Source of the DNA: a virus
Length of the DNA stretch: 64,000 bases
Virus record (IMG/VR): IMGVR_UViG_3300044733_003647
Span: 92,658-156,657 of that record
Direction: 5' to 3' (one strand)
Shown here in pieces: positions 27,041 through 37,060 of the stretch; the first letter of the stretch is position 1, and each line of letters opens with the position of its first letter. The notes under the pieces were generated by a model that made no database searches, had not been told where the DNA came from, and saw only the letters and a list, made by a program, of their open reading frames with translations. The translations under genes were made by a program, and so were the position numbers.

Positions 27041-27069
27041 TTGACAGGCCCTCCACTTTATTGTATAAT
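27041..27069 (+). promoter_or_regulatory. sigma70 promoter with -35 in a hairpin loop
   Basis: TTGACA-17-TATAAT; -35 lies within the TGGAGGGC/GCCCTCCA inverted repeat. Confidence 0.75.
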
Positions 27070-27075
27070 TTTATT

Positions 27076-27273
27076 ATGAAAACGCAAAAAAAATCTATTC
27101 TCAAAAAAGTCCGTGTGAAAATCTCAAATGAGGAGTTCTACACGTTCTCTGATTGGCCATCAAAGGAAATTGATGGTGTGGAATTTATTGCCGTGAATAA
27201 ACGTCTTCCAGCAGGTAATCAAACACAACTAATCCATTGGTTGCGTAAAGATAGCGTAGAATATATCAAATAA
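27076..27273 (+). CDS. Hypothetical protein (possibly leaderless)
   Basis: ATG 6 nt after the -10 box; no SD. Confidence 0.55.
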   Translation: MKTQKKSILKKVRVKISNEEFYTFSDWPSKEIDGVEFIAVNKRLPAGNQTQLIHWLRKDSVEYIK

Positions 27274-29458: not shown

Positions 29459-29965
29459 ATGCAGGTACGTATACTTAACTGTCCAGATAAAGACTTCAGA
29501 CCTTTCGTTGAGAGAGCTGCCGTTTTTTACGCCAAAGAACTTATACCAAATACCAGAATTCGAAATAATTGCCTAACAGAAATACATTTCGATACTAAAT
29601 TAGATGATTATGGCTTCGCAAGTGTAGAAGATTACAATAGCAGAAAACAACCTAGACATTTTATTATCGAAATCAATCCACTTATTGGTTCCAGAAGAAT
29701 ACTTGAAACACTTGCACATGAAATGGTACACGTGAAACAGTACATTTTTGGTGAAACCAATGATACATTAACCAAATGGCGTAATAAAAAATTAGATCCT
29801 GATAAAATAGATTATTGGGTACAGCCTTGGGAAATAGATGCGTATGGCAGAGAAACAGGTTTATTAACCAAGTTTGCGATATCAGAACTTCTATGGGAAG
29901 TATTTGACGACTTTGTTGACCCTTCTGGCCCAATACAAGAAAAACCAATTGCCTGGAAAAGATAA
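29459..29965 (+). CDS. HExxH zinc metallopeptidase-like protein
   Basis: LAHEMVHVKQ, PWEIDAY. Confidence 0.75.
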   Translation: MQVRILNCPDKDFRPFVERAAVFYAKELIPNTRIRNNCLTEIHFDTKLDDYGFASVEDYNSRKQPRHFIIEINPLIGSRRILETLAHEMVHVKQYIFGETNDTLTKWRNKKLDPDKIDYWVQPWEIDAYGRETGLLTKFAISELLWEVFDDFVDPSGPIQEKPIAWKR

Positions 29966-30510
29966 TGTCACACAAAGCACAATTAAATTTTGTTAATCGA
30001 TTAAAAGAAAATAAACCTAATTTTTTTAATAATGCAAAAATTATTGAAATTGGAAGTTTGGATATTAATGGAACAATTAGAAGTTTTTTTGAAAATTGTG
30101 ATTATGTTGGTGTCGATGTTGGGCCGGGAAAAGGAGTCGATTTGGTTTGTGAAGGTCAAAAAGTAGATCATCCAGACAACACTTATGATGTTTCTTGTTC
30201 TTGTAATTGTTTCGAACATAATCCATATTGGGTTGAAACATTTAGAAATATGTTTAGATTAACAAAAAGTGGTGGACTAATTTTTGTTTCTGTTCCTACC
30301 ACGGGAAGACCGCCTCATGGTACACATGAAATTTCTCCGGAAGATAGTCCATTAACAATAAGCATTGGTTGGAATTACTATAAAAATTTAACCGAAAAAG
30401 ACTTTACTGATAATTTTAATTTAAATGAAATGTTTAGTGAATTTAAATTTGAAGAATACCATGAAGAAAATAGTGAACATGATTTATACTTTTTTGGTAT
30501 TAAAAAATAA
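29965..30510 (+). CDS. Class I SAM-dependent methyltransferase
   Basis: IIEIGS, GVD, FEH, LTKSGGLI; very AT-rich. Confidence 0.8.
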   Translation: MSHKAQLNFVNRLKENKPNFFNNAKIIEIGSLDINGTIRSFFENCDYVGVDVGPGKGVDLVCEGQKVDHPDNTYDVSCSCNCFEHNPYWVETFRNMFRLTKSGGLIFVSVPTTGRPPHGTHEISPEDSPLTISIGWNYYKNLTEKDFTDNFNLNEMFSEFKFEEYHEENSEHDLYFFGIKK

Positions 30511-30524
30511 TTTTTAAAAACCGC

Positions 30525-30553
30525 TTGACAAACAAACAAAACGCCTATATAAT
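30525..30553 (+). promoter_or_regulatory. sigma70 promoter of leader/tRNA array
   Basis: TTGACA-17 nt-TATAAT. Confidence 0.85.
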
Positions 30554-30584
30554 ACAAACATTGTTAAATTTTTTAGGAAGAATC

Positions 30585-30689
30585 GTGTCTCTCATACATA
30601 AACCCTTTAGTTTGCAGCCAGAGTATCGCACAATTAATTGTGCCGATGCGTCATGGCCGACCGGGTTTTGTGTAGAAAAGGATTGTTAA
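30585..30689 (+). CDS. Putative attenuator leader peptide (34 aa, all 20 amino acids): MSLIHKPFSLQPEYRTINCADASWPTGFCVEKDC
   Basis: AGGAAG SD then GTG start; 27 consecutive non-repeating codons; overlaps antiterminator strand. Confidence 0.75.
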   Translation: MSLIHKPFSLQPEYRTINCADASWPTGFCVEKDC

Positions 30690-30726
30690 GAACTAAGTTC
30701 TAAAAAAGACTCCAAACACAAGACCC
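30663..30726 (+). promoter_or_regulatory. Antiterminator helix
   Basis: GGGTTTTGTGT (30663-30673) pairs with ACACAAGACCC (30716-30726), which includes the terminator 5' arm. Confidence 0.72.
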
Positions 30727-30752
30727 TTAGACTAAAACTCTAAGGGTTTTTT
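30721..30752 (+). terminator. Rho-independent terminator (attenuator)
   Basis: ACCCTTAGA-ctaaaac-TCTAAGGGT followed by T-run; extendable via CCAAACA/TGTTTGG. Confidence 0.85.
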
Positions 30753-30758
30753 GTTTGG

Positions 30759-30829
30759 TGTTGCGATAAAACAACACACTGGTTGACAGGTCATTGAATC
30801 TGTCATACAATACACTTTGTTCTTTAAAA
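30759..30829 (+). promoter_or_regulatory. Promoter with TGTTG-N8-CAACA palindrome and boxA-like site
   Basis: TGTTG-N8-CAACA, TTGACA-17-TACAAT, TGTTCTTTAAAA (30818-30829). Confidence 0.7.
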
Positions 30830-30848
30830 ATTTATAGAGTTATTTTGA

Positions 30849-30922
30849 TCCCGGATTGTGTAGTGGTAGCACAGCAGACTTTGACTCTGTTAGTATAAGT
30901 TCGATTCTTATTCCGGGTGCCA
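30849..30922 (+). tRNA. tRNA-Gln (TTG)
   Basis: Cloverleaf, CT-TTG-AC loop, CCA. Confidence 0.9.
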
Positions 30923-31872: not shown

Positions 31873-31963
31873 ACCTCTGTAGTTTAATGGTAAAACAGCG
31901 GATTTATACCCCGTAGCGCCAGATAAGCGGCTGATGTGAGTTCGATTCTCACCAGAGGTACCA
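31873..31963 (+). tRNA. tRNA with TAT anticodon (Ile) and long variable arm
   Basis: ACCTCTG/CAGAGGT acceptor, TT-TAT-AC loop, ~20-nt V arm, CCA. Confidence 0.75.
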
Positions 31964-34032: not shown

Positions 34033-34107
34033 GGTACTATGACGTAGACGGATGCGTACCGGTTTCATAAGCCGAGGAGATTGGATCGTTACCAATTAGT
34101 ACCACCA
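34033..34107 (+). tRNA. tRNA-Met (CAT), atypical T loop
   Basis: TT-CAT-AA, T loop ATCGTTA, CCA. Confidence 0.78.
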
Positions 34108-36987: not shown

Positions 36988-37060
36988 GGCGGGTTGGTGA
37001 AACAGTATCACAGTGGGCTCATAATCCTCAGTTCCGGTGCAACTCCGTGACCCGCAACCA
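36988..37060 (+). tRNA. tRNA-Met (CAT), initiator-like
   Basis: 1:72 mismatch, GGG in anticodon stem, CT-CAT-AA, CCA. Confidence 0.75.

Follow-up and report, generated by a model that had tools for sequence, protein, structure and literature searches.

The window analysed here, 64,000 nucleotides in length, is the final 64 kb of one 156,657-bp virus record. The DNA polymerase encoded on the source genome is about 50% identical to the polymerases of T4-like cyanophages, and a search of GenBank returned no close relative of the genome. Within the window, a short ORF with its own promoter (P1) is followed by an intrinsic terminator, a second promoter (P2) and an array of tRNA genes; the features of this locus are collected in Table 1. 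The first-pass annotation had proposed that the ORF is a leader peptide containing all 20 amino acids and that it gates the tRNA array by attenuation. The consensus sigma-70 promoter that it placed upstream of the leader reached the maximum score of 12 in our promoter scan (the P1 and P2 sites both follow an E. coli-like consensus), and transcription from P1 is expected to start near 30560. Direct reading of the sequence confirmed the Shine-Dalgarno (SD)-like motif AGGAAG and the GTG start of the 34-codon ORF. Thirty of its 34 codons are distinct, with the first repeat at codon 28; every one of the synonymous codon sets previously listed as spread over isoacceptors is present; and all 20 amino acids occur when the GTG is read as Met.

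Table 1. Features of the leader locus and the head of the tRNA array, in window coordinates.
Feature	Position	Strand	Details
P1, sigma-70-type promoter of the leader	30525..30553	+	TTGACA, 17 nt, TATAAT; 12/12 in the consensus scan
Shine-Dalgarno-like AGGAAG	30575..30580	+	4 nt 5' of the GTG start
Leader ORF	30585..30689	+	34 codons + TAA; all 20 amino acids; core motif EYRT...SW
Region 1, candidate anti-antiterminator (codons 4-7)	30594..30605	+	pairs with region 2 in the full-RNA fold
Core hairpin within the ORF	30618..30656	+	base TATCG/CGATG, top CACAATT/AATTGTG; from predicted folds
Region 2, antiterminator 5' strand (codons 27-30)	30663..30673	+	GGGTTTTGTGT
Region 3, antiterminator 3' strand	30716..30726	+	ACACAAGACCC; its last bases, CCC, are the start of the terminator 5' arm
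Intrinsic terminator	30720..30752	+	stem 30720-30750, core 30724-30731 with 30739-30746, T run 30747-30752; from the terminator scan
P2, promoter in the gap between terminator and tRNA-Gln	30783..30811	+	TTGACA, 17 nt, TACAAT
boxA-like motif 3' of the P2 -10 box	30818..30830	+	TGTTCTTTAAAAA
tRNA-Gln(UUG), first gene of the array	30849..30922	+	array of 29 tRNAs, extending to about 37057

The 29 tRNAs for all 20 amino acids that had been reported downstream were recovered as 27 ARAGORN predictions plus two tRNA-Met(CAT)-type genes. The latter (34033-34104 and 36988-37057) are missed by ARAGORN at its default settings and found by Rfam and by relaxed ARAGORN; one of the two may be an initiator tRNA or a lysidine-type tRNA-Ile. 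A 91-nt tRNA with the anticodon UAU (31873-31963) combines an acceptor stem like that of tRNA-Ile(GAU) with a long, class II-like variable arm of about 20 nt, and its counterparts in relatives are 90-92 nt long and adjoin tRNA-Ser(GCU). Additional promoters are present inside the array.

Two features upstream of the leader are described here in their own right. In the segment 27033-27279, a second promoter scoring 12/12 (27041-27069) is located within a G+C-rich inverted repeat and is followed by a 65-codon ORF (27076-27273). The ORF matches nothing in Pfam; its end is 5 nt upstream of a tRNA-Met (27279), with no terminator between them. The ATG of this ORF is 6 nt past the -10 box, and thus the message looks leaderless. 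The gene directly upstream of the leader encodes a SAM-dependent methyltransferase (29965-30510), an arrangement seen in the source genome only. Homologues of the methyltransferase (L002-L035; 54-61% identity) reside beside or inside the tRNA arrays of many uncultured phages; these loci were considered as leader relatives and rejected, being non-syntenic and without the leader.

Relatives of the leader were gathered in three ways, by a downstream ORF of 152 amino acids, by a DNA pattern built from two invariant sequence blocks (GAGTATCGCACA and GTCATGG) and by a peptide profile. The resulting cassette family comprises about 100 IMG/VR loci, with 48 unique nucleotide versions that encode 40 distinct peptides of 31-44 amino acids. 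The leader had no relatives in bacterial and archaeal genomes (one genome per prokaryote species), tblastn searches of GenBank phages with the leader gave chance hits only, and an exact 23-mer search over viral contigs gave no match. A metagenome scan yielded at least 2 new leader peptides among the matches listed, most of which represent one unrelated sequence from human-gut assemblies that shares the 19 bases. In Acinetobacter phage 133 there is no such leader 5' of the tRNA-Gln. In every relative for which a downstream tRNA was found, the first downstream gene is tRNA-Gln, whereas the upstream genes fall into four unrelated clusters. With its upstream neighbors differing in this way, the cassette travels with the tRNA array.

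Several lines of evidence bear on whether the leader is translated. The reading frame is intact in all 108 readable loci and open in 48/48 unique versions, and length differences among relatives are multiples of 3. Counted along the edges of a minimum spanning tree, single-base codon changes comprise 63 synonymous and 58 non-synonymous replacements, i.e. 52% synonymous where 24% is expected (p = 3e-11). Broken down by segment, the ratio (synonymous:non-synonymous) is 31:31 for the N-terminal part, 13:2 for the core and 19:25 for the tail. The core motif EYRT...SW is strongly conserved at the peptide level, and FIGSDNQ is found in most members.

The -10 region of P1 is kept among relatives, and those of the SD type have GGAG, AGGAAG or GAAAG at the position of the SD in the window. 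In a second subgroup the promoter is TTGCCA-17-TATAAT and the start codon follows 6-7 nt after the -10 box, with no 5'UTR, so that the message would be leaderless. Leaderless translation requires an AUG at the very 5' end of the message; an ATG start is found in 13/13 unique leaderless versions vs. 8/35 versions of the SD type. Taken together, these comparisons support the leader ORF as a real, translated and conserved leader.

A structured non-coding RNA in which the open frame is incidental would account for a strong, conserved fold that includes both invariant blocks, and for the one subgroup that has no room for an SD. Against such an RNA, the frame stays open throughout, indels preserve it, and codon changes are biased toward synonymous ones, while the very subgroup that has no SD places an ATG at the predicted 5' end of its transcript. 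In addition, Rfam covariance models run over 30525-30760 at E values up to 1 gave no match, neither to the leader families (Trp, His, Thr, Leu) nor to the T-box. We give this explanation very little credence.

The amino acid content of the leader is less easily evaluated from one genome. With the codon usage of the genome, the probability that 34 codons include all 20 amino acids is 8e-4, that the first 27 codons are all distinct 7e-5 and that at least 30 are distinct 3e-3. The genome as a whole offers 2,415 start-stop pairs of 28-45 codons, of which 4 hold all 20 amino acids; two of these are the leader ORF and the other two are unrelated frames of 43 codons. Because unrelated frames also reach 20, a single genome cannot carry the claim, and completeness in the source genome alone is only suggestive once this look-elsewhere effect is taken into account. 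It becomes convincing only through conservation among relatives.

Across the family, near-complete amino acid content is kept in diverged leaders. Of the 40 distinct peptides, 27 contain 20 kinds of amino acid, 11 contain 19, one contains 18 and one contains 17, for a mean of 19.6 against an expectation of 15-17. Random peptides with a length of 31-38 residues contain all 20 at frequencies of 2e-4 to 2e-3 given the composition of the genome, and of no more than 2% given a uniform composition. Shuffling within alignment columns, which keeps positional preferences and breaks co-occurrence, produced 6.9 ± 2.2 complete peptides and never more than 14 in any of 2000 shuffles, compared with the 27 observed, a contrast that is inflated by shared descent.

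The pattern of substitution is also informative. Outside the core, 14% of residues representing an amino acid only once have changed, fewer than among repeated ones (23%; Fisher p = 0.02), and in 10/21 changes of a sole-copy residue the partner peptide has the same amino acid at another position. In two closely related 44-codon leaders (L178 and L210), the single His is at codon 31 in one and at codon 7 in the other, and both retain all 20 amino acids despite this swap. In another leader (L185), Glu has been lost from the core and is present in the tail instead. A rule of keeping one of each amino acid would also explain conservation of the core, since most core residues are sole copies. Selection for amino acid completeness seems likely from these comparisons.

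Other aspects of codon choice are less distinctive. The leaders cover 23.8 of 26 decoding classes, vs. 22.75 in the comparison, with enrichment for Gly, Ile, Leu and Ser and none for Arg and Thr, and we regard the spread of leader codons over isoacceptors as a hint only. Codon rarity in the leader is unremarkable (index 0.55 vs. 0.69 ± 0.08, in the lowest 7%). The idea that a leader mirrors the content of its own array fails for the exceptions, in that two leaders, one without Cys and one without Cys and His, precede arrays that encode tRNA-Cys/tRNA-His. Val codons near the end of the leader may simply reflect the GGGT that pairing requires.

With respect to RNA structure, the 11-bp antiterminator formed by regions 2 and 3 (the 2:3 helix) was found as first described, overlapping the stem of the terminator. 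A 2:3 duplex is predicted in 48/48 versions, with a mean energy of -16.7 kcal/mol and a mean z of -4 relative to shuffled sequences, and it is stronger than most terminator stems in the family. We counted the 2:3 helix, and the helix between regions 1 and 2 (1:2), on fixed alignment columns in addition to computing the duplexes sequence by sequence. On these columns, 87% of cells are paired in the 2:3 helix as against 39-55% when one strand is slid, 6/11 pairs change on both sides, and the covariation score of 0.258 (0.126 in shuffles) was equalled or exceeded in 0/500 shuffles. The 2:3 helix is thus conserved through compensatory changes and excludes the terminator. RNAalifold recovered no more than 4 pairs from a MAFFT alignment, in which the terminator region is misaligned. 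A terminator hairpin with its T run is present in every relative, built on several different stem sequences.

The remaining helices are less uniform. The 1:2 duplex of the window (-12 kcal/mol, z -2.2) appears in the full-RNA fold; family-wide this helix is weak, with 67% of cells paired and 13/500 shuffles as good, and the leaderless subgroup has no 1:2 helix. Region 1 is better in the window type, where the stop codon is also farther from region 2, and this points to two variants: one resembles trp and has four regions, and in the other, simpler one, RNA that is not being translated would read through. The palindrome noted earlier in the middle of the leader lies inside the hairpin predicted by folding the RNA of the window. 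The base pairs TCGC/GCGA of this core hairpin are kept in 48/48 versions and the top of the stem differs between two core types; from the folds, it is possible that it acts as a pause hairpin. The full-length leader RNA folds with unusual stability, at -60.2 kcal/mol and a z of -5.2.

Folds computed with a masked ribosome footprint, which are equilibrium folds, reproduced the logic that had been proposed. With a ribosome at the stop codon, the terminator forms in 48/48 versions and the 2:3 helix in 0/48, while a ribosome stalled at codon 8 leaves the 2:3 helix in 42/48. Nascent RNA that lacks the 3' arm and carries no ribosome likewise forms the 2:3 helix in 42/48 versions.

The mechanism that we propose from this anatomy would begin with a short RNA transcribed from P1, whose 34-codon ORF would be translated as RNA polymerase advances. 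Lying close to where the ORF ends, region 2 could pair with region 3 and so take the CCC that the 5' arm of the terminator requires. A ribosome that reaches the stop codon would make region 2 unavailable by the time regions 3 and 4 emerge, and transcription would terminate at 30752. The distance from region 2 to the stop codon is 0-5 nt in most members and 12-13 nt in those of the window type; in most relatives the finishing ribosome itself would cover region 2, and in the window region 2 would be mostly re-paired with region 1. If instead the ribosome were delayed at any codon that precedes region 2 by more than about 4 codons, the 2:3 helix would form and polymerase would read through past P2 into tRNA-Gln and farther downstream. 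With nearly every amino acid represented once or twice in the leader, such a device would report general decoding capacity, responding to a lack of any charged tRNA instead of following a single amino acid.

The breadth of the putative sensor is somewhat narrower than first claimed. A stall at almost any codon was said to free the antiterminator. The part concerning early stalls stands, as these give the 2:3 helix in the masked folds; the part concerning the end of the ORF does not, as W (codon 24), G (codon 27) and V (codon 30) of the window are inside region 2 or adjoin it. Stalling at any of these three should occlude region 2, so about 17 amino acids would be sensed rather than 20. In most relatives H and V are too close to region 2, and the sensing zone holds a mean of 18.1 kinds. 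With no more than one or two codons per amino acid, the response to a mild shortage of a single tRNA should be weak, and single codons should confer low sensitivity except upon near-total loss of one tRNA.

An attenuator of the same construction might sense something other than the whole pool of aminoacyl-tRNAs, its amino acid diversity being incidental; the signal could be the supply of free ribosomes or initiation, or arrest by the nascent peptide, with the core responding to a ligand or factor. The behavior of ribosome-free nascent RNA agrees with such a signal, as does the default of untranslated RNA to the 2:3 helix in members without region 1, including the leaderless subgroup that has no 1:2 helix. 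The core is conserved at the amino acid level, and His and Val fall outside the sensing zone. What this explanation leaves unaccounted for is that completeness is retained while single-copy residues relocate, and the conservation of the core that it invokes is predicted equally by the 'keep one of each' rule. We judge it improbable.

The relationship between the leader and the array is complicated by P2. A promoter scoring at least 10/12 is found 22-40 nt downstream of the T run in 41/42 unique intergenic versions, and in 35/42 a boxA-like motif lies behind this post-terminator promoter. The boxA of the E. coli rrn operons is TGCTCTTTAACAA. In the window, a palindrome (TGTTG-N8-CAACA, 30759-30776) adjoins the -35 box of P2. 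The combination of P2 with a boxA-like motif suggests, from sequence, that the tRNA array could be subject to rrn-style antitermination. The view that the leader gates the array on its own was not sustained, since this strong promoter and motif precede tRNA-Gln; with P2 located after the terminator, the array can do without read-through, and the terminator might be there just to insulate P2. In the lineage of L094 and L109 (9 loci) the arrangement differs: only 9-10 nt, with no promoter among them, separate the T run from tRNA-Gln, and the terminator separates the sole promoter from tRNA-Gln. In these loci tRNA-Gln would be reached only by read-through.

These observations bear on a further alternative, namely that the locus is a self-contained small-gene cassette, encoding a peptide of 31-44 amino acids or a dual-function small RNA with a role of its own. 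The terminator would then shield P2 from upstream transcription, and the 2:3 helix would tune the stability or translation of the mRNA. Such a cassette would fit the nearly universal P2 3' of the terminator, the mostly synonymous change in the core, as for a functional peptide, and the unusual stability of the full-length RNA. However, the leader peptide matched no family in Pfam or PHROGs, and the L185 peptide has given up the core Glu and carries Glu in its tail. A cassette of this kind also leaves unexplained why the amino acid set stays complete while residues move, why the strand with which region 2 covaries overlaps an arm of the terminator and why the stop codon is so close to region 2, and the lineage without P2 keeps a terminator between its only promoter and tRNA-Gln. 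We consider the small-gene explanation unlikely, though worth keeping in view.

On balance, the locus is probably a ribosome-mediated (leader-peptide) transcription attenuator that heads a tRNA array and probes overall decoding capacity. Computation directly shows the promoter and terminator, the constraint on the coding frame, the completeness of the amino acid set, the alternative helix with its covariation and the linkage to the tRNA genes; we infer that the outcome is determined by ribosome position and that more tRNA is made upon read-through. More tentatively, and with rather more doubt than we attach to the attenuator itself, the leader of this family of uncultured T4-like phages may have been selected for completeness as a general decoding gauge, such that a shortage of any charged tRNA raises transcription into a full set of tRNAs. 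The shortage could arise from starvation, from a mismatch of codon usage early in infection or from host anticodon nucleases. The sensing of such nucleases, and with it a role in counter-defence, is speculation.

If the interpretation as an attenuator is correct, it would be the first described feedback between the speed of translation and the supply of phage-encoded tRNAs, with tRNA genes placed under demand-driven control by attenuation. It would explain how large phage tRNA arrays keep step with need, and would connect, in a way open to testing, the tRNAs of phages with tRNA-depleting defences of the host. Searches of full-text literature found no description of attenuation before tRNA genes, only before amino acid operons.

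Leader-peptide attenuation is a feature of amino acid operons, in which a single amino acid is sensed through repeats of its codon. As judged from its sequence, the phage locus appears to have the testable marks of such an attenuator, the exceptions being the 1:2 helix and regulatory codons in tandem; none of the leaders has a tandem run of one regulatory codon. Like the enterobacterial leaders (trpL, hisL, pheL, leuL, thrL and the multivalent leader of ilvGMEDA), it has a short, translated, promoter-proximal ORF, an intrinsic terminator 5' of the downstream genes, a 2:3 helix that excludes the terminator and a stop codon placed so that a finishing ribosome blocks region 2; in the window type, region 1 is in addition able to pair with region 2. 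It differs from them in containing 19-20 kinds of amino acid once or twice each in place of a run of a single codon, in being carried by a phage and followed by tRNAs rather than biosynthetic enzymes, in lacking a conserved 1:2 helix and having one leaderless subgroup, and in a terminator that usually precedes a second strong promoter.

Two other regulatory systems invite comparison. T-box riboswitches also couple the charging state of tRNA to a choice between terminator and antiterminator, but they do so without an ORF, through binding of one specific uncharged tRNA, and the genes under their control are those for synthetases or amino acids. In pyrBI/pyrE attenuation, as proposed here, the outcome is set by the distance between ribosome and polymerase, with no dedicated regulator. 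In pyrBI, however, the close ribosome itself prevents the terminator hairpin and the signal is UTP-dependent pausing of polymerase, whereas a ribosome that has finished the phage leader would favor termination by way of the antiterminator. In the phage locus, textbook attenuation hardware seems to have become a broad sensor that stands in front of tRNA genes.
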